Origin: a virus
IMG/VR virus record: IMGVR_UViG_2706795548_000001
Coordinates: 1-29,763 of that record
Direction: 5' to 3' (one strand)
DNA length: 29,763 nt
A program made the translations under genes and the position numbers. This document shows positions 1-29,720 of the stretch, one piece after another. The notes below the pieces were generated by a model. The model did not search any database, had not been told where the DNA came from, and was given only the letters and a program-made list of their open reading frames with translations. Numbering within the stretch: the first letter of the stretch is position 1; each line of letters begins with the position of its first letter.

Positions 1-54
1 ATATAAATTGTTGGAGGGGTATAGTTAGGGAAATCAAGATGGAAAGATTTAAAA
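1..54. repeat. Left copy of inverted terminal repeat (54 bp perfect)
   Basis: 1..54 is the exact reverse complement of 29694..29747; looser similarity continues to about position 86. Confidence 0.95.
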
Positions 55-86
55 ATTTTAGCTTCAAAGTATATAATGGGGAAAAG
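28..86 (+). promoter_or_regulatory. Class B early promoter
   Basis: GGGAAATCAA-N6-AAGATTTAAAAA...TATATAATGGGGAAA; ATG 28 nt after start of TTTAAA box. Confidence 0.75.
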
Positions 87-333
87 AAAAATGGAAGCAA
101 AAGAGACAAAAAGGCAAAACAAAAAACAAGAGAAAAAAAAGGAAAAAATAGAAATAGTTGGGAATAAATTATTAAAAATGTACCATCAATTAGACAGGAT
201 GGAGGCGGAGATACTAGAGATACTTAAAGATGCTGATCCTGCTGAAATAGAACAAATTAGGAAGGATTTTATGTATACAAAATATTATTTAACCGGTATA
301 CACGCTGATGTGATTAGTTTTAAATATAAATAA
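76..333 (+). CDS. Hypothetical protein with basic N-terminus, terminal array
   Basis: 85-aa ORF behind class B promoter, followed by T-rich tract. Confidence 0.75.
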   Translation: MGKRKMEAKETKRQNKKQEKKKEKIEIVGNKLLKMYHQLDRMEAEILEILKDADPAEIEQIRKDFMYTKYYLTGIHADVISFKYK

Positions 334-420
334 TTTTTTCCTCTTTCTAATTTCTATTTTTTCTCATTTTTTATGTTTCTATCCTCATTTTTAATTTTTT
401 ATTTTGTAAATTAACTAAGA

Positions 421-441
421 TTATGGCTGTTTTTTCTCACA
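421..441 (+). terminator. Repeated T-rich intergenic motif, probable terminator
   Basis: TTATGGCTGTTTTTTCTCAC variant downstream of ORF 76..333. Confidence 0.45.
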
Positions 442-531
442 TTTGAGATAATATTTGTTTGATTTGAAAAATTCTAGATGCAATGTATAACGTTAATATG
501 GAAAATATAAATTGACAAACGGCAATAGGTA

Positions 532-590
532 ATGAATTCATTAAAGAAAGATTTAAAAAGTTAAAGTGTGAAGTATATAATGGGGAAAGG
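532..590 (+). promoter_or_regulatory. Class B early promoter
   Basis: ATGAATTCAT-N6-AAGATTTAAAAA...TATATAATGGGGAAA. Confidence 0.8.
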
Positions 591-918
591 AGAAATGGTA
601 AAGTTAAATGGCATTAAGTCAATCTTTTTCGGCGAGAAAGAAATTTTTTTAACATATAAGGATGTAAAAATTAGGATCCTAGAGAATGTCTACGGGGATA
701 TTGTTATATACCTTTTTTCAATGAAGGAGGTAGGAAAATTGGCTAAGTTATTTGATGAGTTTAACATGCCTTACCAAAAAATTGGGTATATGATAAGGAT
801 TGTGCGTGAACCGTATGAATTCGGTGTTGAAAGCTTTGAGGAATTAGCAGAGAAATTGAAATCAAAAAGATTTTTGTTACAATTCCTAAATGAAATTTTT
901 CCGCCAAATTTTCCGTGA
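580..918 (+). CDS. Hypothetical protein, terminal array
   Basis: Track start 568 (GTG); ATG 580 lies 28 nt after the TATA box as in sister promoters. Confidence 0.8.
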   Translation: MGKGEMVKLNGIKSIFFGEKEIFLTYKDVKIRILENVYGDIVIYLFSMKEVGKLAKLFDEFNMPYQKIGYMIRIVREPYEFGVESFEELAEKLKSKRFLLQFLNEIFPPNFP

Positions 919-993
919 AGTAATTATTTTTTTCTTAGGTTCCTAATTTGAAATTTTTTATTCCTTTTTTCCTTTTGTTTTCTCTTTCTCTTA

Positions 994-1017
994 TTTTTTT
1001 GGCTAATTTTTTTCACT
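994..1017 (+). terminator. Repeated T-rich intergenic motif
   Basis: TTTTTTTGGCTAATTTTTTTCACT. Confidence 0.55.
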
Positions 1018-1061
1018 TTTCAGATATTATTTGAACGATTTGAAAAATTTGATGAGAAGTA

Positions 1062-1082
1062 AAGATTTAAAAATGTTGGCAT
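1062..1082 (+). promoter_or_regulatory. Class A promoter
   Basis: AAGATTTAAAAATGTTGGCAT, identical to reverse complement of 28900..28920. Confidence 0.8.
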
Positions 1083-1098
1083 TTTGTGTTTCTTTGGC

Positions 1099-1773
1099 AT
1101 GAGCGATACACAAGTAAATCAAAACCCCAGTTTAATATACCCTGGTCCAATTTTTCAATTAAGGACCAGTTGGGTATACAAAATAATAATTGATGACCAG
1201 AAATATGCTATCGACTGCAGGCAATATGTAAGCCACAGTGGGTTGACAACAGAGGGATGCTATCAGATAGAGCTTAATAAATATAGGCAAATTAAATTAA
1301 GGCAAGTTAGAGGTTTATGGATTGAAATCGCCAAGAAAATGGAAGTTGATTCCGATTTCAAATTTACCAGAGAGAACTTAATTTTGCCACATGTATTTTT
1401 GAGGGCTTATGAGGATTTTCTGCAATATTTAATGCCTTACAAAAAGTACCTAGTTAAATTCAACAATTACGGTTTTACTGTTTATATCGCAAAGAAAGCC
1501 CCTGAACTAAAGCCAAAAAGTCCAACGATAACGCAAGGGAAATTAGAAATTTATAAGATGGAAGAAGTTCCATCGACAATAGAATTTGTACCATGGCAGT
1601 TGAACTTTTATGGACATTATGCTGTTGGAGATGTGAATTTGAAATTTGCTAAAGATGGTATACTAGTAAAAGTTGATGACGAGTTGACGATTAGAGCTTT
1701 AGGTTATAATCCAATATCTTTAGGACCTGGGATTTATCTCCTGGTTCACCCCCCAGAAAAGAGTAGAGATTAA
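1099..1773 (+). CDS. acrIIIB1: AcrIIIB1-like anti-CRISPR protein (SIRV2 gp48 family)
   Basis: CxxYxSxSGxTxEGCxQ...RQVRG block, LVKFNNY, QGKLEIY and C-terminal YLLVHP...D match SIRV2 gp48 as recalled; start moved from TTG 1084 to ATG 1099. Confidence 0.7.
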   Translation: MSDTQVNQNPSLIYPGPIFQLRTSWVYKIIIDDQKYAIDCRQYVSHSGLTTEGCYQIELNKYRQIKLRQVRGLWIEIAKKMEVDSDFKFTRENLILPHVFLRAYEDFLQYLMPYKKYLVKFNNYGFTVYIAKKAPELKPKSPTITQGKLEIYKMEEVPSTIEFVPWQLNFYGHYAVGDVNLKFAKDGILVKVDDELTIRALGYNPISLGPGIYLLVHPPEKSRD

Positions 1774-1887
1774 CAGTCAAAGTTATTTTTATTTGTTTTT
1801 GTGTTCCTATTTCTTTAGTTTGCTAATTTGAACCTTCAATGTATAATCGTAATATTTAACATATGAGTTATACAATCGTGATTCCTT

Positions 1888-1946
1888 ATGAATTCATTAT
1901 AGTAAGATTTAAATACTTAAGATTACAAGTATATATTGGGGAAATG
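1888..1946 (+). promoter_or_regulatory. Class B early promoter
   Basis: ATGAATTCAT-N6-AAGATTTAAATA; 1904..1942 matches reverse complement of 26690..26728 at 37/39. Confidence 0.8.
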
Positions 1947-2180
1947 GGAATGGAAAATCAAAACAAAATAAGTGATTTCAAAAGTTGTTTAAAGTTTTTT
2001 AATATACCAGATATGCCGTTTGAGGCATTAAGTTATTCGGAAAAAGAGTTGTACAACATTTGCTATAGGTTTTACAAAGCAGGCGACTTAGATTTCGACA
2101 GTGTTGATACTTCTGCATTAGATGCTGAAAATAAGAGAAAGTTATCTGAGTTAGTAAGCCAAATTTTAGATACATTTTAA
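1944..2180 (+). CDS. Hypothetical small protein
   Basis: Track start 1863 runs through the promoter; ATG 1944 or 1950 is the likely start. Confidence 0.75.
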   Translation: MGMENQNKISDFKSCLKFFNIPDMPFEALSYSEKELYNICYRFYKAGDLDFDSVDTSALDAENKRKLSELVSQILDTF

Positions 2181-2198
2181 CAAAGGGTGTAGGCTACT

Positions 2199-2375
2199 GT
2201 GAGAGTCGTAACATTTAAATTAGAGGAAACGTTGTTGGAACAATTAGACAGCCTTGCAATCAAATATCAATTAACAAGAAGTGAGATAATCAGAAAAGCC
2301 ATAGAAAAGCTGATAGAAGAAGAGAGAAGCAAAGAACAAATTCCAAAGGCAAGAGTCGAAAAGATTAGGCTTTAA
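2199..2375 (+). CDS. Ribbon-helix-helix (CopG-like) transcription regulator, 58 aa, not in ORF track
   Basis: Hand translation [58 protein letters not shown]; beta-strand plus RSEIIRKAI helix. Confidence 0.85.
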
Positions 2376-2383
2376 GTCATTTA

Positions 2384-2409
2384 TTTTTTTATGGTCTATT
2401 TTTTTCACT
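2384..2409 (+). terminator. Repeated T-rich intergenic motif
   Basis: TTTTTTTATGGTCTATTTTTTTCACT between convergent genes. Confidence 0.55.
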
Positions 2410-2435
2410 TTTGACATAATATTTCTATTTCTTTA

Positions 2436-2882
2436 TTATTTGTCTTTAGCATTCCTCTCTTTTTGCTTAAACATGTATTGCAATACTTTCCTTATTGTTT
2501 CGATATCAAGATTTAAAATTTCAAAATGTAAATAATAATATTTTCCAAACCTTCTCTGCATTTCTTTATAATCTATTTGTGTATTTGTTGCAATTAGTCG
2601 ATGATAATGTAATTTGTGTAATTTACCACGTTCAATAACTGAAAATATCTCTGCCTGGTATTTCGTTTTGATGTATTCTTTTGGCGGTAAGTATATCTCT
2701 CCATTTGTCGCTTTTGTCTTCCTTTTTCTCTTCTTTTTGCCTTTTTTTGTAGTTTCAGTCATTAGGTAGAGATATTTGAAATTTTCGACTTTGCTAAGAA
2801 AATTTCGCAGTTTCTCTACTGTAGACTCTGAGATATTGTATTTTATTACAATCTCTGCGATAATAAGGTCTTGATCTTCCAC
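2436..2882 (-). CDS. rep: HUH-superfamily Rep nicking protein (SIRV1 ORF119-like)
   Basis: HUH motif LHYH and catalytic YxxK motif (QYMFK); position next to SvtR-like and ssb genes. Confidence 0.8.
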   Translation of the reverse strand: MEDQDLIIAEIVIKYNISESTVEKLRNFLSKVENFKYLYLMTETTKKGKKKRKRKTKATNGEIYLPPKEYIKTKYQAEIFSVIERGKLHKLHYHRLIATNTQIDYKEMQRRFGKYYYLHFEILNLDIETIRKVLQYMFKQKERNAKDK

Positions 2883-2918
2883 AAGAAAAAAAGAGGTGAA
2901 AACAAAAAAAAGATTTCT

Positions 2919-3077
2919 TTATTTATCCGTTTCGTCTTCAGATTCTGGCAGTTGATCCACAAATTTCCTAATTAGATCATTTATTGTGATACCATGATTA
3001 ATACAGTATATTTTTAGCTTTTTATGTTGTTCTTTTGTAAGCCTTACTGATATTAATACCTTAGCTTCTCCGGACAT
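2919..3077 (-). CDS. svtR: SvtR-like RHH repressor, 52 aa, not in ORF track
   Basis: Hand translation MSGEAKVLISVRLTKEQHKKLKIYCINHGITINDLIRKFVDQLPESEDETDK; LKIYC resembles SvtR LKVYC; lies upstream of rep. Confidence 0.7.
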   Translation of the reverse strand: MSGEAKVLISVRLTKEQHKKLKIYCINHGITINDLIRKFVDQLPESEDETDK

Positions 3078-3154
3078 GGCGTTGTCACTTCTTGTATTAT
3101 TTGATTACATTTAAAAGCAGTAAAGATTTGGATAATACTAGTTACTATGATTTT

Positions 3155-3175
3155 AAGATTTAAAAATGTTGTCAT
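3155..3175 (+). promoter_or_regulatory. Class A promoter
   Basis: AAGATTTAAAAATGTTGTCAT; 3148..3178 is a perfect 31-bp inverted copy of 25296..25326. Confidence 0.8.
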
Positions 3176-3201
3176 CAAATCTTCATTTACGGTGTTTGGA
3201 A

Positions 3202-3483
3202 ATGAAAAACCTAACTCGGATGATCTCTGTCCGAGTTTCCAAGACACAATACCAGTTTTTTTTAATGTATAAGCAAGAATTAAAGGAAAAGTTGTTAAAA
3301 AAGGTGGGAGAAATGGAAAATATAAATATTAAATTGGACCCAACAAAAGATAAAGAAATTTATGACAATTTAATATCATTCAGAGTACCTTACCAATATT
3401 TCCAGAAAATTGAAGAGATAGCAGATAAAAATCAAGTGAAAATAAGTGATGTGATAAGAAATATTCTATTCAGTGGTGAATAA
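3202..3483 (+). CDS. Tandem RHH-like DNA-binding protein
   Basis: Two RHH-type strands (ISVRV, ISFRV), second followed by KISDVIRNIL helix; track start 3166 lies inside the promoter motif. Confidence 0.65.
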   Translation: MKNLTRMISVRVSKTQYQFFLMYKQELKEKLLKKVGEMENINIKLDPTKDKEIYDNLISFRVPYQYFQKIEEIADKNQVKISDVIRNILFSGE

Positions 3484-3484
3484 A

Positions 3485-3865
3485 ATGGCAACTTTGGAAG
3501 AAATTTTCAATGAATTAAGAGACAAAGCGAAACAAAGCGGAAAGCCGGCAACAAGAGTACTAAAGATCAAGGGGCTAAAAAGGTTAGTTATACAGTTGAA
3601 TGCTATACCCAATGGCAATAGTGTAAGATTTTCAATGACAGTACATAGTCAGAGAAACTACAAGAAACAGTTAGGAATTGTTGCGGGAGATGCAGATGAT
3701 TTTGCAATTATCGCTAAATTCTTGCAGAGTCATAAGGATCTATTGGATAAATATGTAAAATTTACAGTTACTAATAGCAATAATGAAGTTGAAGTAGATC
3801 TTGGAGAAGAAAATGAAGAGCCAAAGAAAGAGAGGAAAAAGAAAAACGTGGAGGATGAGTTCTAA
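3485..3865 (+). CDS. Rudiviral ssDNA-binding protein (SIRV2 gp17/ORF131 family)
   Basis: RVLKIKGLKRLVIQLNAIP...MTVHSQRNYKKQLG core with charged C-terminal tail; upstream of ATPase and nuclease. Confidence 0.85.
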   Translation: MATLEEIFNELRDKAKQSGKPATRVLKIKGLKRLVIQLNAIPNGNSVRFSMTVHSQRNYKKQLGIVAGDADDFAIIAKFLQSHKDLLDKYVKFTVTNSNNEVEVDLGEENEEPKKERKKKNVEDEF

Positions 3866-4138
3866 ATGTCGTTACTAGAAGAAAATCCGGATTTAAATAC
3901 AATTAAAGATGCAATAGAAAATCAATTTTACAGATATCATACGTCAAGACTTGATGTTGTACTATTGCCAATTAGCGATAACATGGGAATATTTTATACA
4001 ATTTATACTATTGAATATGCCGATATTGAAAATATAGCGTCAGTAGGTCTCGAAAAGGGAGTTTATTATTTCAACAAAGAAACAAAAAGCCTTAAAATCC
4101 AAATTGGCAGATTTGAAAAGCAAATCAACTTAAGTTAA
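3866..4138 (+). CDS. Hypothetical protein
   Basis: 90-aa ORF abutting the ssb stop codon. Confidence 0.75.
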   Translation: MSLLEENPDLNTIKDAIENQFYRYHTSRLDVVLLPISDNMGIFYTIYTIEYADIENIASVGLEKGVYYFNKETKSLKIQIGRFEKQINLS

Positions 4139-4142
4139 TATA

Positions 4143-4167
4143 TTTTTTTATGGCTAATTTTTCTCAT
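4143..4167 (+). terminator. Repeated T-rich intergenic motif
   Basis: TTTTTTTATGGCTAATTTTTCTCAT immediately after stop 4138. Confidence 0.6.
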
Positions 4168-4240
4168 TTTTGTTTTAATATTACTACTTCTCAATTTACA
4201 ATTGGCATATTTTTGTGGGTAGTCGAGAGATATACAACAG

Positions 4241-4268
4241 TCATATTCATAATATTAACCATATGCAT
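4241..4268. promoter_or_regulatory. Core-gene upstream block
   Basis: 26/28 identical to 12761..12788; 4235..4268 vs 12755..12788 is 32/34. Confidence 0.7.
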
Positions 4269-4317
4269 TTTGCAGGGTCACGATAGATTAAAAGATGTTT
4301 TCACCAAATAATTTATC

Positions 4318-5625
4318 GTGGCATCTCTAGATGAATTCAAAAAGTTATTTGAAGAGAATTCATTTATTTTTAATCCTAGAGATGAAAATCGAATTTTATA
4401 CTACATCTTCAGAAATACTAACATTCCAGAAGAAAAGAAAGCTAACGCATTAAAGGCATGGCATTTGGGGAATGACAACCAGTATTTCGAAATGTATAAA
4501 GCCTTCACTGACGAAATAAAATTTATATCTAAAATTGTGAAATTTAAAGAGAAAGGTGGAGAAATTGTTGCTTACTTTCAGAATGGTTTCACTGGGCGTT
4601 TTGATCCCAGGATGTTGGCGGATAACCCGGATGACGCTTATAATTTAATGCAATCCTACTTGTTAGTTAAAATCAAAAAGACGACTGATAGTTGGGAAAT
4701 TTACGATATTATCCCAGTCGAGCCTGCAAAAAATGTTGATGTTGCAAGACAACTGTTGCAATTTGTAGAGGCTGAGCATATGACATATGCCGTTTTACTA
4801 TATGCTTTTGGTTATGACGTGGAGAAGATGGATTCGAATGATGCACTGCTAACAATTCCAAGATTTTCCCCGCTTTTTGTCTCACCATATTCAAAAAGAA
4901 GATATAACGTCATAGAAATTTCCAATCCTGGGACTGGGAAAACTTCAATTTTTACAATACTACAAGAAGTTTTTAATTTCAGATACTATACTGAGCCACC
5001 AACTTATGCCAATTTAGTCTATGATGCGAGAAATAATGTCTACGGTGCGGTCTATCTTGCTAAGGGGCTAATCTTTGACGAAATTCAAACTTGGAAAGAT
5101 AACACAAACAAGAAAAATATGGATACAATAAATTCAACATTATCGACAGGAATTGAAAATTGTATTTGGACAAGGGGGGCAGGGACTGAAAGTAAATCCG
5201 CAACGATTCACAGATGTTTACCAATAATATATGCGGGAAATCCAATAACCATGACTTTAGATAAATTTGCCTCACCAGATGTTGAGGATTATTTGTCGAA
5301 ATATGAAATTTTTACTCCCGCAATATTAGATAGATTTCACTTAATCCAAGTTACGATAAAGAAAACTTACGATAAAATTGGAAGTAGGAGGGTTCTTTAT
5401 CCTTCAGTTTTGAAGGCTTTAGTTGATCTCTTGCAAGAAAAACTAAATCAACAGAATCATTTTGTAGATTGCCAAAATTTCTCATCAAGAAGATATGATC
5501 AGGCTGTCGACATTCAGTTGTTGTTGAGAACTCTGGATTTGCAAAATGATGAGATTGAGAAAGATCAAGATGCGTTTTGTTCAAGACTTCAGCAATATAT
5601 GCGATTTATGAATTTGATAGGGTGA
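4318..5625 (+). CDS. Lon-like AAA+ ATPase (SIRV2 gp18/ORF436 family)
   Basis: Walker A SNPGTGKT, Walker B LIFDE, AILDRF arginine-finger region. Confidence 0.88.
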   Translation: MASLDEFKKLFEENSFIFNPRDENRILYYIFRNTNIPEEKKANALKAWHLGNDNQYFEMYKAFTDEIKFISKIVKFKEKGGEIVAYFQNGFTGRFDPRMLADNPDDAYNLMQSYLLVKIKKTTDSWEIYDIIPVEPAKNVDVARQLLQFVEAEHMTYAVLLYAFGYDVEKMDSNDALLTIPRFSPLFVSPYSKRRYNVIEISNPGTGKTSIFTILQEVFNFRYYTEPPTYANLVYDARNNVYGAVYLAKGLIFDEIQTWKDNTNKKNMDTINSTLSTGIENCIWTRGAGTESKSATIHRCLPIIYAGNPITMTLDKFASPDVEDYLSKYEIFTPAILDRFHLIQVTIKKTYDKIGSRRVLYPSVLKALVDLLQEKLNQQNHFVDCQNFSSRRYDQAVDIQLLLRTLDLQNDEIEKDQDAFCSRLQQYMRFMNLIG

Positions 5626-6257
5626 TAGAGACGGTTTACGAAAATAGGATTAAAGAGAGTTTTAAGAAGCTTTATCCAGAAGATACGCTTTACCCGTCAG
5701 AAATTGGACACTGTCTAAGGCGTTCAATTTTGGCAAGAAGAATTGAACATACAAAAAATTTTGCAAATGAAGTTGTTGATTATGGATTAGCAATCCACGA
5801 AGATGTTGAAATTTATTTCAAAGAGAAACTTAGTTGCGAAGCTGAGAAATCAATTGAGTATGAAATTGAAGGTGTAAAAATTTCAGCAAGAGTTGATTTA
5901 TTGTGTGGAAGCGATTTGATTGAGTTAAAGACAGTCCCACATTTTATTCGTCAGCCTTATCAAAGCCATATCATACAAGTTTCACTTTATTATTATATAC
6001 TGTCACAATTGAATTATAAAATTGATAATGTCTATCTTATTTATATAAATAGGCAAAATTATGATGTTCAAGAATTTAAAATTCAAAAAGATCAACTTGA
6101 TCAAGGCTTGAAAAATGCAATAGACTTCATCAAAAATTACAAAAAATATAAAGACGAACAAAATATATTTAAAATCCCAATTGGGGACACAACATTTTGT
6201 AAAAATTGCGAATTTAAGAACATTTGCTATGGTTCAATTAATAATTTTTTAAAATGA
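5622..6257 (+). CDS. cas4: Cas4-like PD-(D/E)XK nuclease with Fe-S cysteines (SIRV2 gp19 family)
   Basis: YPSEIGHCLR, ARVDLL..IELKT, QVSLY and CKNCEFKNIC; GTGA overlap with ATPase stop gives start 5622. Confidence 0.9.
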   Translation: MIETVYENRIKESFKKLYPEDTLYPSEIGHCLRRSILARRIEHTKNFANEVVDYGLAIHEDVEIYFKEKLSCEAEKSIEYEIEGVKISARVDLLCGSDLIELKTVPHFIRQPYQSHIIQVSLYYYILSQLNYKIDNVYLIYINRQNYDVQEFKIQKDQLDQGLKNAIDFIKNYKKYKDEQNIFKIPIGDTTFCKNCEFKNICYGSINNFLK

Positions 6258-6325
6258 GTGTATGATTCTCTGGATTACTCTCAGAGTGCTATGCTTATAA
6301 ATTACATATTATTAAGTATATTATT

Positions 6326-6649
6326 ATGAAAGGTAAATTTGACGATTGGAATAAATATAGATCAGACGTTAATAAAATAATACTTGAGTATTTCAATAAA
6401 GTTGGCATAATGGCGACAACAAGAGCTTTATATTTCTCATTTGCGCAAAAAATATTAGCAATTGTTAGAAAGCAAAAAGATGAAAATCTTATTAATAAAT
6501 TAATCGAGGGGAATATTAAATATTACGCAATGGCATTTGATGCAAATGAAAAAGTATTGCGTGATATTGTAAAAATTATAATTTTAGCTAAAATTGTAAA
6601 AATGAACCCTGATGATATATTGAAAGAAGTATTAACGCAGAAATCGTGA
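6326..6649 (+). CDS. Major-capsid-protein paralogue (SIRV2 fold, lacking N-terminal arm)
   Basis: Aligns with C-terminal part of MCP: GIMATTRALYFSFAQKI vs GVTGPMRAIYQGYGLKV; EGNIKYYAMAFDAN vs AGLKAYYVSAFGAN. Confidence 0.7.
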   Translation: MKGKFDDWNKYRSDVNKIILEYFNKVGIMATTRALYFSFAQKILAIVRKQKDENLINKLIEGNIKYYAMAFDANEKVLRDIVKIIILAKIVKMNPDDILKEVLTQKS

Positions 6650-6665
6650 TAGTATCGCCGATACA

Positions 6666-6708
6666 CATATTCCTAATATTAATTATATGCATATTAAGCA
6701 TTCAATTT
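6666..6708. promoter_or_regulatory. Core-gene upstream block (MCP promoter)
   Basis: 6674..6708 matches 12770..12804 at 33/35. Confidence 0.75.
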
Positions 6709-6745
6709 TTATAAGCTATAAATTCAAATAACTAAATGACAAAAC

Positions 6746-7150: not shown

Positions 7151-7230
7151 ACTTAAAAGCTAATTTTCAATTTTTTTATCTTTTTCTACTTCTTGTTTTG
7201 CTTAAAAATGTAATCTTCAAACGTTAAATT

Positions 7231-9402: not shown

Positions 9403-9448
9403 AGTTTAAATTTATGTGCTTATAAGCTTAAAAACATGACATTTAATT

Positions 9449-12704: not shown

Positions 12705-12760
12705 GCCACATCTGTGTATTATTTCTCTTATTGTCATTTTTATTGCTCAATATTCAACAG

Positions 12761-12804
12761 TAATATTCATAATATTAATCATATGCATATTAAGCATTGA
12801 ATTT
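12761..12804. promoter_or_regulatory. Core-gene upstream block in divergent promoter
   Basis: TAATATTCATAATATTAATCATATGCATATTAAGCATT; shared with 4241, 6666 and 24694. Confidence 0.75.
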
Positions 12805-14915: not shown

Positions 14916-14943
14916 ATTCTTATAATGTATATTATGAATATTA
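14916..14943. promoter_or_regulatory. Core-gene upstream block, reverse orientation
   Basis: 23/28 to reverse complement of 12761..12788. Confidence 0.55.
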
Positions 14944-15005
14944 TCATTCAATATTGTGCAGTAGAATAAATTATAACTGAGATTGTAAATCTTACATAGA
15001 TAGAA

Positions 15006-19578: not shown

Positions 19579-19596
19579 CGTAAATCTGCCTACAAC

Positions 19597-19624
19597 ATGC
19601 TTATATTAAATATTATGAATATTG
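19597..19624. promoter_or_regulatory. Core-gene upstream block, reverse orientation
   Basis: 23/28 to reverse complement of 12761..12788. Confidence 0.55.
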
Positions 19625-19669
19625 CTATTGCGTATTCTGCTTAAAAATGTCCACATTAGGGATTAAAAT

Positions 19670-20845: not shown

Positions 20846-20846
20846 G

Positions 20847-22502: not shown

Positions 22503-22511
22503 AGTACATTC

Positions 22512-23765: not shown

Positions 23766-23786
23766 ACCAATTTTACCGCCTGGAGT

Positions 23787-24635
23787 TTACATTTTTAAAC
23801 TTTTCTTCTTCTCCAGATACTTTCTAATAATTCCAGTATTTCTCCTTAATGCAGTATCAACAACTCCACATTTTCTATCAATATCTGGCTGAGTTATTGC
23901 ATATTTGTCTTGCTTAGCGAGAAAATACAAAATTGTAGTTGCAACAATTTTCGGGCTTTTCCCAGATAAAATGCCAGACTGCTCAATTTCTTTCGCAAAG
24001 TTAAGCGCTTTTTCTATTAATTCAGTTGGTAAACCAAGTCGTAAACCGCAACCTTTTATAAAATCTTCAACTGTAAAATTTGGAATTTTTTCGTCAAAAT
24101 TCTTTAAAACCTCAAAGTATGCCCCGATAAATCGCTTTGGTATGACCTTATATATCTTCCAAATTTTTTCAATATACTCGTCAAATGGCATCAAAATTCT
24201 CAATTTGCGATATGCCATATAGATAGAAACAAAGACAATAAGTTCAGAACCTAAGTATCTCAAATGTTTATTTTTCCACAACTTTTGCAAAATTCTACTT
24301 GCTTCTTGTGTTATAGTTTCATTACCTCCAATTTTTTGAACTGCCGTCGATAAAAATCTTAAAGCGTCAAGTAATGGCTTATTACTCACCGGATAAAGAC
24401 TTGAAATACTAACCTTTTTGGGTTTAATACCAACAGTCGGTAAAAACCCTGAATTAACAAAGACGTTTGGATTTATTGGAAAAGCTCTTGCCCTTTCCAC
24501 AAACTGCTCATTGTTGTAGGCTCTCCAGTCCATACCTTCATCTACAACTTTATCTTCTAGAACTTCTCCAGTCTCAGTACAAATATACTCTCCTCTTTCG
24601 GTATCAAACACGATTTTGTCAGATGGACAGTTCAT
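23787..24635 (-). CDS. tfb: Viral transcription initiation factor B (TFB/TFIIB) homologue
   Basis: CPSDKIVFDTERGEYICTETGEVLED..DWRAY ribbon and reader; two cyclin repeats with GKSP. Confidence 0.93.
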   Translation of the reverse strand: MNCPSDKIVFDTERGEYICTETGEVLEDKVVDEGMDWRAYNNEQFVERARAFPINPNVFVNSGFLPTVGIKPKKVSISSLYPVSNKPLLDALRFLSTAVQKIGGNETITQEASRILQKLWKNKHLRYLGSELIVFVSIYMAYRKLRILMPFDEYIEKIWKIYKVIPKRFIGAYFEVLKNFDEKIPNFTVEDFIKGCGLRLGLPTELIEKALNFAKEIEQSGILSGKSPKIVATTILYFLAKQDKYAITQPDIDRKCGVVDTALRRNTGIIRKYLEKKKSLKM

Positions 24636-24693
24636 ACGAAAATCTCAATTCGATTACATTTTTATTTCTTGCCAAGAACTACAATTTCAAACT

Positions 24694-24721
24694 TAATATT
24701 CAAAATATTATAAATATGCAT
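24694..24721. promoter_or_regulatory. Core-gene upstream block before tfb
   Basis: 24/28 identical to 12761..12788. Confidence 0.65.
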
Positions 24722-24763
24722 TGTTAGTTCAAATAAAGGCGATATAGAAATAGTATATCAAAA

Positions 24764-24789
24764 GTGAGAAAAATTAGGCATAAAAAATT
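24764..24789 (-). terminator. Repeated T-rich intergenic motif
   Basis: Reverse complement of GTGAGAAAAATTAGGCATAAAAAATT, adjoining stop 24788. Confidence 0.6.
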
Positions 24790-24931
24790 ATCCATATACA
24801 ATTTCTAAATAATGAAATAAAGCTTCACATTCTTCTGGATCAAGTTCTGCCTCTTCCAAAGCTAAGATAGTATCGGAACTGTAACCGTCAAGATTGTAAC
24901 CTTTTTGCTTTAAAACCGTCAAACAGTTCAT
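24788..24931 (-). CDS. 47-aa acidic protein downstream of acrIII-1, not in ORF track
   Basis: MNCLTVLKQKGYNLDGYSSDTILALEEAELDPEECEALFHYLEIVYG; GAGGTGA RBS overlapping the acrIII-1 stop. Confidence 0.75.
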   Translation of the reverse strand: MNCLTVLKQKGYNLDGYSSDTILALEEAELDPEECEALFHYLEIVYG

Positions 24932-24938
24932 GTTTACT

Positions 24939-25283
24939 TCACCTCACTCTTTCAATATAGTAAAGATCATATCCAATTTTTTGTAATTCATCTTCACTTT
25001 GAATTACATGCCCCTCTGGCAGTCTTTGCCTTAGCACAATCGCAATTGCGCTATCACCAACTTTGAAATAAATTGGAATTCTATTTGTCTCGACTGGCAT
25101 TCCTAATAAAGCAGACATAACACTGGCAGTTGCAGAATGCCCAATTGCCGAAATTACTTGTTGTGCATTATCTACAATATCTCTTGCCTCACTTATACTA
25201 ATTCTTTTTATTTTAAATTCTGCCTCATTATCTTGGATTGGGATAATTAAACTATTTAGGAGGTACAAGACCACTCGACTCAC
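24939..25283 (-). CDS. acrIII-1: AcrIII-1 viral ring nuclease (DUF1874, STIV B116 / SIRV1 gp29 family)
   Basis: 114 aa with signature AIGH, NR and QRLPEG residues. Confidence 0.9.
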   Translation of the reverse strand: MSRVVLYLLNSLIIPIQDNEAEFKIKRISISEARDIVDNAQQVISAIGHSATASVMSALLGMPVETNRIPIYFKVGDSAIAIVLRQRLPEGHVIQSEDELQKIGYDLYYIERVR

Positions 25284-25298
25284 CCTAAACGAAACTTG

Positions 25299-25319
25299 AT
25301 GACAACATTTTTAAATCTT
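25299..25319 (-). promoter_or_regulatory. Class A promoter
   Basis: AAGATTTAAAAATGTTGTCAT on minus strand before acrIII-1. Confidence 0.8.
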
Positions 25320-25323
25320 AAAA

Positions 25324-26166
25324 TCAAACAACTCTACAAAATTGCTTTTTCTTACATTCTCCAATTATATCTTCAAATTTAACACCGTCTATTTCTTCAT
25401 TATCGCCGTAATCTTGTAAAATTACTTTGTACATATTGTCTTCAACAACAAATTCAAAAACTTTGTAAAACCACGCCGTATGTCTTCCAGTATCGGCTTC
25501 TAGTGCTATCCAACCAATATTTGCCTCCCTCTTCCCTTCAAAGTCAACTATTTGTCTGCCTCTTGGAATAAATACTGCATTCTGCTTAAGTTTATTGTAT
25601 AAATCTAAATCATCATAATTGAAAATAAAAGTATCATGACCTAGAATTTTCCAATACACTTCCCATAACGCAAAGTGATCAATTATATCTGGCAAATCTA
25701 AGATATTGAAATTATCAATATTGACAACATAAGGATTTGCAATCTCAAATTTTTCAATTGAGCTCAACTTAGTTGCTAAATCGTTGGCAAATACTTTATT
25801 TAGTTTTGGACCATCAATAGTGTAATAATTGTAAAGTATAAGTCTATTATTGGAAATCACGCCATAAATCGTTGACTTATCGAATTTCCATAAAATGTAA
25901 TCAGTCACTATCATGTCTTGAACTGAAGGGGCATCTGGACCTCTTGGATGAGTATGCAAAACGGCATAAACGGTCTCTGGCATATACTTTTGCAAAGGAC
26001 TGAGATCTGCACTGCCTTTGTCCCCCTGGTAATAATCGGAGAACCACTCACCTAAAACAATTAGGTATTCCCTATCTGTAGACTTTGACTTTTGGTATAC
26101 ATCTTTCAAAAAATCTAAATTTTTAAAAATAGTAAGAACATTACTTCTGACTTTTGATCTAGACAT
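25324..26166 (-). CDS. JAB/JAMM (MPN+) zinc metallo-isopeptidase with C-terminal extension
   Basis: N-terminal REY glutamate and exact HxH-x7-S-x2-D motif (HTHPRGPDAPSVQD). Confidence 0.8.
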   Translation of the reverse strand: MSRSKVRSNVLTIFKNLDFLKDVYQKSKSTDREYLIVLGEWFSDYYQGDKGSADLSPLQKYMPETVYAVLHTHPRGPDAPSVQDMIVTDYILWKFDKSTIYGVISNNRLILYNYYTIDGPKLNKVFANDLATKLSSIEKFEIANPYVVNIDNFNILDLPDIIDHFALWEVYWKILGHDTFIFNYDDLDLYNKLKQNAVFIPRGRQIVDFEGKREANIGWIALEADTGRHTAWFYKVFEFVVEDNMYKVILQDYGDNEEIDGVKFEDIIGECKKKQFCRVV

Positions 26167-26187
26167 ATATCACCAATAAATCGTTAT

Positions 26188-26208
26188 ATGCCAACATTTA
26201 TCAAGATT
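26188..26208 (-). promoter_or_regulatory. Class A promoter variant
   Basis: TTGATAAATGTTGGCAT on minus strand, then GGTGA RBS. Confidence 0.6.
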
Positions 26209-26247
26209 TCACAGAAAATAAGAAATAGTAGAATTAATATTACGAAT

Positions 26248-26270
26248 GTGAAAAAAATAGTCCAAAAAAA
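26248..26270 (-). terminator. Repeated T-rich intergenic motif
   Basis: Overlaps a 27-bp direct repeat shared with 28968..28994. Confidence 0.5.
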
Positions 26271-26336
26271 TAAGTAAAAACAAAAATAGAGAGGTTAAAA
26301 GAAGGAAAGAGAAAAGAAGGAAAAGATAAAAAAAAG

Positions 26337-26681
26337 TTATTTTACCTTTATCCAACCTTTGTCAAAAGTAAAGACGTAAACTTCAATTTTTCCATCGTAC
26401 TCACTATAGTACGCCTCTGTTTCTTTTACAACAACTACCGGGTCAGTCTTAGGTATAATAATCTCAGTTGTGATTTCTTGTCTTTCGTCTTTTGAAATCG
26501 GAACTATGTCAGCGTCCCCAAACACAATTTTAACCCTATCATATAAGTCTTCTCTGAAATACTTCTCTATTTCTAACAAGTATTTTGCTTCTGGTTGCAT
26601 ATTTTTTGCCTCATTTAAGAGTTTTGCAATTTGATCTTCATTTAATTCTTCTACTTTTATTTCTTCTTTTTCTTGACTCAT
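26337..26681 (-). CDS. Hypothetical acidic beta-rich protein, terminal array
   Basis: ATG 26681 (track TTG 26696); IIPKTDPVVVV...YVFTFDKGW motif recalled from crenarchaeal filamentous viruses. Confidence 0.75.
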   Translation of the reverse strand: MSQEKEEIKVEELNEDQIAKLLNEAKNMQPEAKYLLEIEKYFREDLYDRVKIVFGDADIVPISKDERQEITTEIIIPKTDPVVVVKETEAYYSEYDGKIEVYVFTFDKGWIKVK

Positions 26682-26685
26682 TCTC

Positions 26686-26744
26686 CCACTCCTCAATATA
26701 TAGTTGTAATCTTAAGTATTTAAATCTTTCCACCATGAATTCAC
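26686..26744 (-). promoter_or_regulatory. Class B early promoter
   Basis: GTGAATTCAT-N6-AAGATTTAAATA. Confidence 0.8.
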
Positions 26745-26835
26745 TCAGAACCCCGTTTGCATATCTCATATTGTCAATATTAGCATTATACATTGTACAT
26801 TGAATTTAGCAAACAACAGAAATAGTATCTGTAAA

Positions 26836-26858
26836 ATGAAAAAAATTATTCAAAAAAA
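26836..26858 (-). terminator. Repeated T-rich intergenic motif
   Basis: Plus strand ATGAAAAAAATTATTCAAAAAAA. Confidence 0.5.
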
Positions 26859-26909
26859 TAAATAATGCAAAAAACAGAAGAAATAAGAAATAGAAAAGTG
26901 AAAAAAAGA

Positions 26910-27200
26910 TTAGGTTAAAGATTGATAAAGGATCTTTGCTATTTCTTCTCCCATTGGCGTTAACTCAACGTATCTCCTATACCGCCATGTCTCTTTAAAA
27001 AAGATCTTCTTGGTCTTTACTAAACCTTTACTCTCCAAACTTGTTGTATACTTGGATGTGCCGAATATTTCGTGTAACTCCCGGGTCCAAACTAACTGTT
27101 CCCCGTACCTAATTTTTGAATCGAGTAAAAAAATAAGAAGCATTTTTTCCTTATACGTTAATTCTGGTACCTTTTGCACTTCCATCACACTTACCACCAT
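26910..27200 (-). CDS. Winged helix-turn-helix protein (MarR/PadR-like)
   Basis: LESKGLVK...YVELTPMGEEIA wing and terminal helix pattern. Confidence 0.75.
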   Translation of the reverse strand: MVVSVMEVQKVPELTYKEKMLLIFLLDSKIRYGEQLVWTRELHEIFGTSKYTTSLESKGLVKTKKIFFKETWRYRRYVELTPMGEEIAKILYQSLT

Positions 27201-27248
27201 TATATATTTTAAACTGAGACTATTTAAATCTTCCTATCTTGAAATCAG
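27190..27248 (-). promoter_or_regulatory. Class B early promoter
   Basis: CTGATTTCAA-N6-AAGATTTAAATA; ATG 28 nt after TATA start. Confidence 0.75.
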
Positions 27249-27291
27249 TTGCAAGTAGTCAATTTGCACAACTTCAATTAAAATCTCAAAC

Positions 27292-27315
27292 TTGAGAAAA
27301 ATTAGGCAAAAAAAT
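27292..27315 (-). terminator. Repeated T-rich intergenic motif
   Basis: Plus strand TTGAGAAAAATTAGGCAAAAAAAT. Confidence 0.55.
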
Positions 27316-27378
27316 ATGCAATAAACAAAATGAGAGATTTAAAACAAAAGGTCTAAAAACAAAAAAATAGGGTAACTT

Positions 27379-27645
27379 TTATTCGAAAAGCAATTTGCCA
27401 AGAACTTCATCTGGGATTCTCATTACCGCCCAGAGTGATTTAACTCCTAACATGTAGTCACTGGTATATGTGCTATCTAGTAATTGACCATTTGAATCGT
27501 ACCAGTCCAAAAGTATATATTCGTCTTTGCCAGTTGGTTCAAGTATAATGCACTCCAGAACTTCTCCTTTGCGGTTCAACTTCCACACTACAATTTTCTT
27601 GTCTATATGTTGTTTCAAGTATTTGAAACTTTTTTTACGTGCCAT
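27379..27645 (-). CDS. Hypothetical 88-aa protein (paralogue of 27834..28100)
   Basis: 19/88 ungapped identities with its neighbour. Confidence 0.8.
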   Translation of the reverse strand: MARKKSFKYLKQHIDKKIVVWKLNRKGEVLECIILEPTGKDEYILLDWYDSNGQLLDSTYTSDYMLGVKSLWAVMRIPDEVLGKLLFE

Positions 27646-27648
27646 TTT

Positions 27649-27707
27649 TCTTTCCCCGTATTACTTTTCGTAACTGGAGTATTTAAATCTTTCCTTCATA
27701 AAATCAT
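27649..27707 (-). promoter_or_regulatory. Class B early promoter
   Basis: ATGATTTTAT-N6-AAGATTTAAATA. Confidence 0.75.
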
Positions 27708-27762
27708 GAAGTTTAACAGTTGAAAACGTAAATAGTTGCACAATAGAAATAGTATATCAAAA

Positions 27763-27787
27763 ATGAAAAAAATTAGGCAAAAAAATA
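27763..27787 (-). terminator. Repeated T-rich intergenic motif
   Basis: 27743..27785 matches 24744..24786 at 40/43. Confidence 0.55.
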
Positions 27788-27833
27788 GCTATCACAAATT
27801 ACAAGAAATAAAAAATGAGGAAAACGAAAAAAA

Positions 27834-28100
27834 TTATTCCCAGATCATCTCGCCTAAATCTTCTTCTGGTAATTCTTTTAATTCTGCAAATGAAGAAACT
27901 CCAAAGTATTTTAGTTCTGTTTTAGAACAATACTCAAACCACCCCTCATCATTAAAAAAGCAAACATAAACCGTTTTAGAATCCCCCTTGTCAAGTCGAA
28001 TTTCTACAAATTCCAACAACTTACAATTACCGTATTTGTAAACTGTTATTTTATTCTTTCCAATTTCTTTTATGTATTCAATCAACCCTTCTTTCACCAT
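27834..28100 (-). CDS. Hypothetical 88-aa protein (paralogue of 27379..27645)
   Basis: Shared GVxS...P.E.LG...E C-terminus. Confidence 0.8.
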   Translation of the reverse strand: MVKEGLIEYIKEIGKNKITVYKYGNCKLLEFVEIRLDKGDSKTVYVCFFNDEGWFEYCSKTELKYFGVSSFAELKELPEEDLGEMIWE

Positions 28101-28148
28101 ACTACTTTACGCAATCAGAGTATTTAAATCTTTCTTTAATGAAATCAC
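28090..28148 (-). promoter_or_regulatory. Class B early promoter
   Basis: GTGATTTCAT-N6-AAGATTTAAATA; 21 bp identical to 537..557. Confidence 0.8.
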
Positions 28149-28203
28149 TAAGATTATCTATCAACAACTAGAATTTTCAAACCATAGATTTAATATCTCT
28201 AGC

Positions 28204-28230
28204 ATGAGAAAAATTATGCATTAAAAAATT
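28204..28230 (-). terminator. Repeated T-rich intergenic motif
   Basis: Adjoins stop of 28229..28888. Confidence 0.55.
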
Positions 28231-28888
28231 ACAAAATTTTCATATTTAAAATCTTTGCAACATCTTTGTCAATTTGTTCCAAACTATCTTTAAAAAAGCA
28301 AGTAACATATCTCTTAATCTCAGGGGAATAGCATAATGTCGACTCTTTGAGCAAATTTGTTGTCACAGACATGTACATAATATCGTCTTTGTCTTTCTTC
28401 TCACCCATAGCAAAAAATCTGTATAAGTACCATTCTTCTAGTGTGCGGTCATACTTGCCAAATAATGGAAAGTGCCAAATTCTATACTTAAGATCTTCCC
28501 ACAATTCTGGATCTATTTCAGTTTTGTCACTTTGCTTTATTTTATCAACAACTTCGTCAAAATACAAAATAGCCAGGACTCTCTTTATTTTATATTGTGT
28601 AAGGACTACAGTTTTTGGTTTATTGTTCCAATAATAAACACTCACCATGTAGTAATACTTTGCATTATTTTCTAAATATGCATTAATCATTTTTTCAATA
28701 TTGATATTGAACAACGAAAAGAATATCATTTTCCTATATTCACTCTCTGGTTCCATATTTCTCAATTTTTTATCCTCATTATCAACATTAAAGGATTTTA
28801 TATCGTATGCAGAAAGATTTGGTTCATCAATTATTTTTTTAATTTCATTTTCGCTCAATTCGTTTGTTTCCAACTGATACCACCGCAT
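28229..28888 (-). CDS. Hypothetical 219-aa protein, terminal array
   Basis: Track ATG 28909 lies inside the class A motif; ATG 28888 is 28 nt after the TATA start. Confidence 0.8.
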   Translation of the reverse strand: MRWYQLETNELSENEIKKIIDEPNLSAYDIKSFNVDNEDKKLRNMEPESEYRKMIFFSLFNINIEKMINAYLENNAKYYYMVSVYYWNNKPKTVVLTQYKIKRVLAILYFDEVVDKIKQSDKTEIDPELWEDLKYRIWHFPLFGKYDRTLEEWYLYRFFAMGEKKDKDDIMYMSVTTNLLKESTLCYSPEIKRYVTCFFKDSLEQIDKDVAKILNMKIL

Positions 28889-28899
28889 CTCAAAACTTG

Positions 28900-28920
28900 A
28901 TGCCAACATTTTTAAATCTT
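28900..28920 (-). promoter_or_regulatory. Class A promoter
   Basis: AAGATTTAAAAATGTTGGCAT on minus strand. Confidence 0.8.
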
Positions 28921-28983
28921 TAATTCAGCCAAACTACATACTAATAGCTAAAATTTTAAAATTGTACAATTAATATTACGAAT

Positions 28984-29008
28984 GTGAAAAAAATCAGGCA
29001 TAAAAAAA
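28984..29008 (-). terminator. Repeated T-rich intergenic motif
   Basis: Plus strand GTGAAAAAAATCAGGCATAAAAAAA. Confidence 0.5.
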
Positions 29009-29062
29009 GATAACATGCAAACCAGAAAATTGAGCAAAAATTAGAGACAGGTTAAAAAAAGA

Positions 29063-29659
29063 TTAATATCTTGCGTAGTACATTAAATAAATCCCAGGGG
29101 GCAGACCAATACTATAACAACTATAGGTTATCATACTATCCTCCTTAATTACTATACCAACAACATCCGGCGGTGGCTCGGCATATATATATTGTTCAGC
29201 AATCCTTTCTGGAACTTGTATAATCTGGTACTTTCCAATTAAATCAAAAGTAGGATAGTGCGTTCTTTGATCTTCCATTTGCCCATTTTCGTTTCCGTCA
29301 ACGAATTTGCAGTTTGCTATTTTCATCAGGATCAATCTGAATTTACTGTATGTCCAATCCTCTACAAACACTTCACCAGGCATCCAGTCTTGGTAATTCT
29401 CCATGACTATCTTTGCAATACGCAGTGGGTTTTGATAAATGAAATCATGCTTTGAGCTAACGCCGAATTGTTGCAGTTGATATGACCTTACTTTATGTGG
29501 GTAGAAAACGTATACTTTGCCTTCTGGCGCTATTTCCCATTCCGATATTGGTCCCTCAGCAACTATATGCATCCTCTCAACTATCTGATCTCCCTTCTGC
29601 CCATATAAAAACAACTCTTTTTGATTTGCACCATGAATTCTCTTATACCAATATATCAT
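29063..29659 (-). CDS. Hypothetical 198-aa protein; C-terminus resembles AcrIIIB1-family tail
   Basis: IGLPPGIYLMYY vs ISLGPGIYLLVH in 1099..1773. Confidence 0.75.
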   Translation of the reverse strand: MIYWYKRIHGANQKELFLYGQKGDQIVERMHIVAEGPISEWEIAPEGKVYVFYPHKVRSYQLQQFGVSSKHDFIYQNPLRIAKIVMENYQDWMPGEVFVEDWTYSKFRLILMKIANCKFVDGNENGQMEDQRTHYPTFDLIGKYQIIQVPERIAEQYIYAEPPPDVVGIVIKEDSMITYSCYSIGLPPGIYLMYYARY

Positions 29660-29661
29660 AC

Positions 29662-29720
29662 CTTATCCCCATCTTACATTTTGAACTTTAAGCTTTTAAA
29701 TCTTTCCATCTTGATTTCCC
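29662..29720 (-). promoter_or_regulatory. Class B early promoter (overlaps right ITR)
   Basis: Mirror of 28..86; identical through the TATA box. Confidence 0.7.

Follow-up and report, generated by a model that had tools for sequence, protein, structure and literature searches.

At both ends of the 29,763-bp stretch of viral DNA analysed here (the window, a complete linear virus record), eight small genes are preceded by a shared promoter-like segment in which a short palindrome stands at one fixed distance from a strong TATA box. This raises the question whether these segments are co-regulated promoters and, if so, whether the palindrome is the site of a regulator that unites them. The first part can be answered with considerable confidence, as the eight sites are very probably true co-regulated promoters of the early/anti-defence type. 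As to the second part, we favour on balance the interpretation that they are eight copies, about five of them independent, of one early-gene expression cassette (class B in the following), in which an 8-bp dyad is most likely the site of one symmetric dimer uniting the regulon.

The window is the whole genome of ARV2 (Acidianus rod-shaped virus 2), a member of the genus Hoswirudivirus, and its coordinates are those of the record NC_029314. This identification is based on two proteins in Supplementary Data 1 of the study by Bhoobalan-Chitty et al. (2024, Nat Commun 15:3699) that match open reading frames of the window exactly, namely AZ268_gp09 at 3202..3483 (MKNLTRMISV...) and AZ268_NORF at complement 26910..27185 (MEVQKVPELTY...). 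The sequence of ARV2 was obtained by assembly of metagenomic data from Pozzuoli, the virus itself has never been grown in culture, and a look-up of RNA runs containing the sequence returned none. The nearest database relatives of the window are the Italian rudiviruses SSRV1 (Saccharolobus solfataricus rod-shaped virus 1) and MRV1 (Metallosphaera rod-shaped virus 1), with ~83% identity across the core, and overall identity among ARV2, ARV3 (Acidianus rod-shaped virus 3) and SSRV1 is only ~80%. The ARV3, SSRV1 and MRV1 records do not include the genome termini.

The pattern RTGAWTTCAW-N6-AAGATTTAAAWA was matched eight times in ARV2 with ≤3 mismatches, compared to 0.10 matches expected from shuffled controls (shuffle maximum 1). 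The matches start at 28, 532 and 1888 on the plus strand and at 26744, 27248, 27707, 28148 and 29720 on the minus strand, which bears out the eight-copy motif described in an earlier reading made from the letters of the window (the sequence-only reading). All eight sites face inward and lie ≤2.0 kb from the left end or ≤3.1 kb from the right end. For the analysis of their layout, the eight sites and four promoters from relatives (SSRV1 gp35; ARV3 gp02, gp03 and gp05) were aligned on AAGATTT, and position numbers such as +26, +34 or -15 count from the first A of this heptamer unless the transcript start is named. The element AAGATTTAAA was found 14 times in ARV2 (0.64 expected), and in 8 of these 14 sites the core TGAWWTCA (≤1 mismatch) is located exactly at -15, while other offsets are not enriched. 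The binomial probability of such a fixed offset is ~1e-16 with ≤1 mismatch and 3e-14 for the five exact cores. Thus, the earlier description of a palindrome, ATGAATTCAT, that is perfect at 532 and 1888 and keeps one offset to AAGATTT in all eight copies was correct.

The palindrome had been given as 10 bp long, which did not hold, as the dyad comprises 8 bp (TGA-WW-TCA) and the outer positions are not symmetric. Among 11 independent sites, complementarity holds in 10 for T-A, in 10 for G-C and in all 11 for A-T, the W-W centre is AT, TT or AA, and positions outside the 8 bp are without symmetry. Likewise, the copy in the terminal repeat, GGAAATCA, is not half-matching as formerly stated; it is one mismatch away from TGAAATCA, the mirror form (other orientation) of the commoner TGATTTCA, and the ARV3 gp02 promoter carries TGAAATCA exactly. 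The occurrence of both orientations (TT and AA) at one position argues for two-fold symmetric recognition, and with a strict 3+3 symmetry around such a centre a dimer is a reasonable assumption. The dyad is probably a protein-binding site for a symmetric dimer. Since the half-sites are only 5 bp apart, a ribbon-helix-helix (RHH) dimer or a forceps-type protein with basic helices would suit it better than a classical winged-helix dimer, and geometrically one RHH dimer would fit an 8-bp dyad, as at the sites of MetJ and of the cellular cell-cycle regulator aCcr1.

In each cassette the dyad is followed by 7 bp, the strong B recognition element (BRE) and TATA box AAGATTTAAAWA, a proximal element, a pyrimidine-G initiator, a leader beginning with GGGG or GGTG, and the start codon. 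All eight sites contain RGAAAGATTTAAAWA, a purine-rich BRE directly 5' of a TATA box of the TTTAWATA type. The BRE/TATA of ARV2 (ATRGAAAGATTTAAATA) is the same as at early and anti-defence genes in SIRV2 (rod-shaped virus 2 of Sulfolobus islandicus), and RGAAAGATTTAAAWA agrees with the SIRV2-type consensus GAAATAGAAAGKTTTATATA at ~15 of 17 positions, counted from ATAG onward. The remark in the sequence-only reading that strong shared early promoters mark anti-defence genes in rudiviruses is consistent with this. In the alignment, information content peaks at TGA..TCA, at RGAAAGATTTAAAWA and at ARTATATAWTGGGG, which represents the proximal element plus the G-run, and is low in the sequence 5' of the dyad as well as in the stretch from TATA to the proximal block.

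Downstream of TATA, all eight sites share a fixed block with an A/T-rich stretch at +26..+32, a pyrimidine-G step at +33/+34 and a G-run at +34..+37. The same step and a GGGG, GGTG or GAGG run from +34 are present in 12 of 12 promoters, those of ARV3 and SSRV1 included, and an in-frame start codon is found at +45..+48 in the same 12. An initiator had earlier been placed 28 nt from the start of TATA; the distance is right when counted from the first A of AAGATTT and the block is indeed fixed, although it is better read as A/T-rich proximal element, initiator and leader together. Seven of the 12 promoters contain an ATG at +32, which is out of frame in three of these seven. As a transcript starting at the A at +32 would begin with a 5'-terminal AUG in the wrong frame, we infer that transcription starts at the first G of the G-run (+34), 30 nt after the first T of TATA. 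Relative to this start, TTTAAAWA would be located at -30..-23, the canonical distance in Sulfolobales promoters, the dyad would be centred near -45, and a leader of 11-14 nt would remain whose first bases (GGGG, GGTG or GAGG) are Shine-Dalgarno-like.

This layout also bears on the gene starts. Four of the eight starts assigned before (76, 580, 27200 and 28100) correspond to an ATG inside the motif and are probably wrong, because a conserved start lies 15 nt downstream in each case (91, 595, 27185 and 28085). In agreement with this, the gene designated NORF, which has no locus tag or accession in the 2024 table, is tabled there with a start at 27185 (Bhoobalan-Chitty et al., 2024), and the PHROG profile of gp41 begins at the residue encoded by TTG 28085, ATG 28100 being part of the promoter motif.

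The eight copies are not independent of each other. The two outermost are located inside an 86-nt terminal inverted repeat, the promoters at 1904 and 26728 share 159 nt at 77% identity, and the copy at 548 resembles the terminal repeat, so that the cassettes of ARV2 appear to represent about five independent lineages, to which the four promoters in ARV3 and SSRV1 are added. The case consequently rests on which columns are conserved and which have diverged, and on the promoters of the relatives. It is conceivable that the dyad needs no separate factor, either because it was merely kept through recent duplication or because it confers DNA shape or bendability on an extended promoter. The clear paralogy of the cassettes (terminal repeat, 159-nt pair and a 93-nt pair) would be compatible with this, as would the finding that the dyad 8-mer is not enriched genome-wide (13 matches versus 7.3 expected). 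However, the flanks of the dyad have diverged while TGA and TCA are near-invariant in 11-12 promoters of three viruses, and the arms are retained even though TT and AA alternate at the centre, as selection on a symmetric site would predict and simple inheritance would not. We consider an explanation without a binding factor quite improbable.

The promoters of SSRV1 gp35 and of ARV3 gp02, gp03 and gp05 have the same layout as class B in ARV2, with TT or AA at the centre of the dyad, and a truncated SSRV1 gp37 promoter at the very end of that record fits the downstream half. [quoted passage not shown] By this comparison the dyad is specific to the genus Hoswirudivirus while the BRE/TATA core is general. 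Early promoters of Sulfolobus islandicus filamentous virus (SIFV), checked for a comparable dyad, carry a different upstream element of the ATCGAGA/TCGATAA type, and lineage-specific promoter flanks have been described for other viruses as well (Bhoobalan-Chitty et al., 2024). Scans with DNA patterns of IMG/VR and of metagenomes yielded single chance matches only, none with the class-B downstream block, and protein-based locus searches for further relatives found none. In 201 genomes of the order of a Sulfolobales reference genome, the composite dyad-N7-AAGATTTA was matched once, compared to four control matches, indicating that it is not a host promoter type.

With regard to function, the place of the dyad is informative. 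Its core ends 7 bp before AAGATTT, a few bp 5' of the BRE, and overlaps neither BRE nor TATA, and at such a place an activator is as possible as a repressor. The dyad could thus be an upstream activating site at about -45, at which a virion protein or a factor of the host, such as a Sta1-like or other Sulfolobales regulator, helps to recruit transcription factor B (TFB) and TATA-binding protein (TBP) and boosts immediate-early transcription. A site just 5' of the BRE without overlap is the usual place of an archaeal activator, host Sta1 activates SIRV1 promoters according to a review, and the dyad is kept in viruses with hosts from three genera (Acidianus, Saccharolobus and, by CRISPR spacer matches, Metallosphaera). 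On the other hand, the BRE/TATA is already near the strongest consensus, so that activation seems unnecessary, the single composite match against four control matches in the 201 genomes speaks against a host regulon with this layout, and ARV1 lacks the dyad despite its origin in the same field. An activating role is in our view unlikely.

We instead prefer an Aca-like (anti-CRISPR-associated) role, in which a virus-encoded regulator shuts off the early genes through the dyad, although at present we regard shut-off by a viral regulator as plausible rather than probable. In the proposed course of events, host TBP, TFB and RNA polymerase would read the purine-rich BRE and the TTTAAAWA core, the same as at SIRV2 early/anti-defence promoters, as soon as the DNA enters the cell. 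The A/T-rich proximal element and the pyrimidine-G initiator would direct initiation to the first G of the G-run, and binding of one symmetric dimer to the dyad would place all eight promoters in one regulon.

Three of the eight cassettes are located on the plus strand of the left end. Cassette 1 (28..90), in the left terminal inverted repeat, consists of GGGAAATCAA at 28-37 (core 29-36, one mismatch), BRE/TATA at 44-55, and proximal element, initiator and G-run at 70-81, and would drive gp01 (AZ268_gp01, ADG.45; 91..333), an orphan whose length is 80 amino acids (aa) if the conserved ATG at 91 is used and 85 aa if translation begins at 76. Cassette 2 (532..594; perfect ATGAATTCAT at 532-541, BRE/TATA at 548-559) precedes gp02 (ADG.44; 595..918), with 107 aa from 595 or 112 aa from 580, which belongs to no Pfam family and matches phrog_20020 (function unknown). 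Cassette 3 (1888..1943; perfect ATGAATTCAT at 1888-1897, BRE/TATA at 1904-1915) precedes gp04 (AZ268_gp04, ADG.61; 1944..2180, 76-78 aa) and gp05 (2199..2375), a 58-aa RHH protein of the CopG type and member of the aCcr1 family.

The other five cassettes are on the minus strand of the right end. Cassette 4 (26682..26744; GTGAATTCAT at 26735-26744, BRE/TATA at 26717-26728) is predicted to drive gp39 (ADG.05; 26337..26681, 114 aa), which has weak homologues near the termini of several SIRV genomes. NORF (ADG.46; 26910..27185, 91 aa), a probable winged-helix regulator, follows cassette 5 (27186..27248; CTGATTTCAA at 27239-27248, BRE/TATA at 27221-27232). The gene gp40 (ADG.47; 27379..27645, 88 aa) is preceded by cassette 6 (27646..27707; ATGATTTTAT at 27698-27707 with one mismatch in the core, BRE/TATA at 27680-27691), and gp41 (ADG.43; 27834..28085, 83 aa from TTG 28085) by cassette 7 (28086..28148; GTGATTTCAT at 28139-28148, BRE/TATA at 28121-28132). 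Cassette 8 (29660..29720), in the right terminal inverted repeat, with GGGAAATCAA at 29711-29720 and a BRE/TATA at 29693-29704 that ends in AAAG, would drive the orphan gp43 (ADG.50; 29063..29659, 198 aa). The products of gp40 and gp41 are paralogous (phrog_20350), with SSRV1 gp36 as a distant relative, and these are the two class-B genes with AGTAATAC or AGTAGTAT as proximal element in place of TATATAAT.

A Pfam scan of ten terminal proteins, those of the eight class-B genes included, gave no significant family for nine of the ten, in line with the earlier view that the shared cassette stands before small, mostly orphan terminal genes. The view that these genes are anti-defence candidates agrees with the published tables for six of them (gp01, gp02, gp39, gp40, gp41 and gp43), which are predicted as such there; gp04 and NORF are listed as 'ADa' (anti-defence-associated, regulator-like) (Bhoobalan-Chitty et al., 2024). 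Not all eight class-B genes are thus likely to be effectors, NORF being regulator-like and gp04 being labelled 'ADa' and probably co-transcribed with an RHH gene.

The latter assignment is based on the arrangement of the two genes. The GTG start of gp05 lies 18 nt past the gp04 stop and is preceded by GGGTG, and a T-rich terminator follows at ~2380-2400, so that gp05 is likely to be co-transcribed with gp04 from cassette 3; it is tabled as a co-transcribed low-probability entry (Bhoobalan-Chitty et al., 2024). The order gp04-gp05 is kept in SSRV1 (gp01-gp02) and ARV3 (gp03-gp04), and an RHH gene directly follows gp04 in all three Hoswirudivirus records. Homologues of gp04 (SSRV1 gp01, ARV3 gp03 and ARV1 gp37) share two invariant Cys, and profile searches with gp04 against PDB and Pfam gave no match and no recognisable fold. 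Its upstream region is of class B in ARV2 and ARV3, is an ARV1-type early promoter in ARV1 and is cut by the record end in SSRV1. The gp05 protein matches Pfam RHH_1 (E 4.9e-9), shows 62% identity to a cellular protein of the Sulfolobales and has SIRV2 gp21 as a homologue. A homologue of a host cell-cycle regulator would accordingly be made from an early promoter in these viruses; the promoter of SIRV2 gp21 itself (gp20-gp21) has been described as middle-late.

The identity of gp05 opens a further explanation, in which the downstream block (AGTATATAAT / AGTAATAC) and not the dyad is the main operator, and gp05 or host aCcr1 represses from a position between TATA and the start, in the manner of aCcr1 at cdvA. 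The DNA-reading strand of gp05, MRVVTFKL, is identical to that of cellular aCcr1, and R2, K7 and R27 are also in common, so that its specificity should be the aCcr1-box (AGTATTA / GTAWTAC). Such boxes are located between TATA and the start codon, and a perfect AGTAATAC, with the full aCcr1-box-like GTAWTAC, forms the proximal element of the gp40 promoter (cassette 6), while AGTAGTAT is found in that of gp41, both at -8..-1 from the predicted transcript start. However, among the eight promoters the full GTAWTAC occurs in that of gp40 only and at four places genome-wide, the box is near-perfect in gp41, its strict form is missing from the other six, and the commoner TATATAAT differs from AGTATTA. 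Moreover, SIRV2 gp21 failed to bind the early promoter of SIRV2 gp01, and any strong Sulfolobales promoter should have an A/T-rich proximal element. We regard a main operator downstream of TATA as very improbable. For gp05 as a binder of the dyad the same two observations, the strand identical to that of aCcr1 and the lack of binding by SIRV2 gp21, make it an unlikely candidate.

Several other proteins could in principle read the dyad. NORF is 52% identical to SSRV1 gp37, which is annotated as a transcriptional regulator, and 31% identical to ARV1 gp38. Its assignment as a winged-helix protein comes from one weak profile match to PH1061 (E 0.065), and its single-sequence structure model is poor (predicted local distance difference test, pLDDT, 48). 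An exhaustive search returned, besides SSRV1 gp37, only a protein of 100 aa encoded on a contig of 1 kb and a spurious match, giving a family of 3-4 members. The 52-aa RHH protein gp07 (2919-3077) and the tandem RHH protein gp09 are Hoswirudivirus-specific and well conserved, and nothing ties either of them to class B specifically. The AlphaFold model of gp01 is a helical hairpin (pLDDT 94) with a Lys/Glu-rich N-terminal helix, and no homologues of gp01 were found. It was also considered as a binder of the CRE-like (cAMP response element-like) TGA..TCA, similar to basic leucine zipper (bZIP) or basic helix-loop-helix (bHLH) proteins; Foldseek, however, returned generic hairpins only (E > 0.5), which does not support such a role. 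We tentatively propose that the dyad is the operator of a Hoswirudivirus-specific regulator (gp07, NORF, gp04 or gp09, less likely gp01) and would constitute a second Aca-like switch of an early regulon in archaeal viruses, unrelated to Aca8, that acts from 5' of the BRE via contact with TFB and not by occlusion; so specific a scheme is in our estimation rather doubtful.

The regulator genes under class-B control, NORF and the gp04-gp05 operon, speak for a regulated regulon of this kind. A number of points weigh against it. The cassettes are paralogous and their similarity is in part inherited and not selected, and the class-B promoters, their start site and their timing are themselves inferred from sequence. 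Characterised archaeal repressors mostly overlap the BRE/TATA or the start site, sites just 5' of the BRE are often activator sites in archaea, and the dyad overlaps no core promoter element, whereas an Aca-type operator would be expected to do so. No candidate regulator could be tied to the dyad, and a host factor is also possible. The family of NORF is tiny and a winged-helix dimer suits the 5-bp spacing of the half-sites poorly, while the aCcr1 homologue SIRV2 gp21 failed to bind an early promoter, as stated above.

Apart from class B, the AAGATTTAAA sites include a second class of promoters (class A, AAGATTTAAAAATGTTGKCATCAA) at 1062, 3155, 25319 (minus strand) and 28920 (minus strand). 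The AcrIIIB1 homologue gp03 (1099-1773) lies behind a class A promoter, and gp09, a class A gene, has RHH-type matches in PHROGs only. Compared by eye, the class A promoters (ATGATTTTAAGATTTAAAAATG..., at 1061-1097, 3148-3178, 25296-25326 and 28881-28936) share 11 of the 14 specified positions of the consensus published for the SvtR site, ATnnTTCAAnAnnnnnAAAATG, and the spacing is identical. They also contain an 8-mer, TGAWTTWA, which abuts the BRE and resembles the class-B dyad but is ~7-8 bp closer. In the divergent gp07/gp09 intergenic region (3125-3145), a conserved aCcr1-box-like element is located just 5' of the gp09 class A promoter. Its sequence in ARV2 is GGATAATACTAGT, where the minus strand shows AGTATTA; SSRV1 has GGATAATACT and MRV1 has GAGTAATACT (relatives' positions ~1225-1240 and ~895-910). 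The element may be a target of gp05 or host aCcr1.

A TFB homologue is encoded at 23787-24635 on the minus strand (Pfam TFIIB zinc ribbon, E 1e-10; TFIIB repeat, E 2e-10), with annotated counterparts in SSRV1, ARV3 and MRV1, and may serve to redirect transcription towards the non-early promoter classes. Many terminal genes are followed by a repeated block of ~40 nt, composed of a T-run, GGCTAATTTTTCTCAC and TTTT, which occurs in both orientations (992-1032, 2386-2427, 4135-4186, 24745-24791, 26229-26270, 27287-27324 and 27747-27787) and also in SSRV1 and ARV3, and is probably a shared terminator module. Another repeated element, ...CATATTCATAATATTAA.CATATGCAT..., also conserved in ARV3 and SSRV1, is found 5' of core genes (4230-4276, 12738-12791, 14916-14983 and 19589-19647) and has the look of a separate promoter or operator class, probably middle or late.

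Shared early promoters are the best present handle on anti-defence genes in archaeal viruses, whose proteins are nearly all orphans, and a further question is how the early regulon is switched off in viruses that lack Aca8. As a concrete candidate operator, the 8-bp dyad has the advantage of a precise position and of conservation among three viruses whose hosts differ, and with SSRV1 and ARV3 there are cultivable relatives that carry the same element. If the regulator is found, one regulator-operator pair would become available that is usable as bait for guilt-by-association searches.

The anti-defence reading of the class-B promoter genes is already published for ARV2 itself. It was shown that SIRV2 early genes, acrID1, acrIIIB1 and aca8 among them, share a regulatory sequence around a strong BRE/TATA, and a MEME/RSAT pipeline built on that sequence was applied to ARV2 among others (Fig. 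1D of Bhoobalan-Chitty et al., 2024). In addition to the six predicted anti-defence genes, the class A genes gp03 (AcrIIIB1 homologue), gp09, gp42 and gp37 (AcrIII-1) are tabled in that study. In the table rows covered here, none of the eight class-B genes bears the name of a known anti-CRISPR protein, and the named homologues gp03 and gp37 stand behind class A promoters. New in this analysis are the genus-specific 8-bp dyad as a separate element, the 15-nt shift of the start in four genes and the gp04-gp05 operon with its aCcr1-type RHH protein.

The class-B cassette and the published regulatory sequence concern the same genome and the same genes, and have in common a strong BRE with TTTAWATA, virus-specific flanks and small single terminal genes. 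The flanks common to all eight ARV2 sites, the dyad at -15 and the proximal element with the G-run at +26..+37, are of the kind included in the 2024 definition. That study pools classes A and B, with gp03, gp09 and gp42 in one list with class B, and its text, as far as it was available to us, treats inverted repeats for SMV2 and one metagenome-assembled genome only and does not discuss an ARV2 dyad. The SMV2 system, with gp37 as leucine-zipper candidate, resembles ARV2 in its virus-specific inverted repeat beside an early promoter and in the proposal of a small protein of the virus as the repressor; the SMV2 repeats overlap the BRE, whereas the ARV2 dyad does not. ARV2 gp01, with its basic helix and hairpin, showed no similarity by eye to L7H13_norf1, one sequence of the SMV2 gp37 family.

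With aCcr1 and SIRV2 gp21, ARV2 shares a 7-8 bp palindrome of a size read by one RHH dimer and a family member, gp05, within a class-B operon. The aCcr1-box differs both in sequence (GTA-W-TAC versus TGA-WW-TCA) and in place (between TATA and the start codon versus 5' of the BRE). The winged-helix protein Aca8 of SIRV2 and the bacterial acr-aca systems offer the other comparison, with one promoter shared by many anti-defence genes, a small DNA-binding protein made from the same promoter type and an expected early shut-off. ARV2 is grouped with the viruses without Aca8 in the part of the 2024 study considered here, and bacterial Aca operators are longer inverted repeats overlapping the core promoter, in contrast to the 8-bp dyad 5' of the BRE. 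ARV2 has in common with Aca-type systems an inverted repeat in the shared promoter region and DNA-binding proteins, NORF (probable) and gp05, encoded behind that same promoter.

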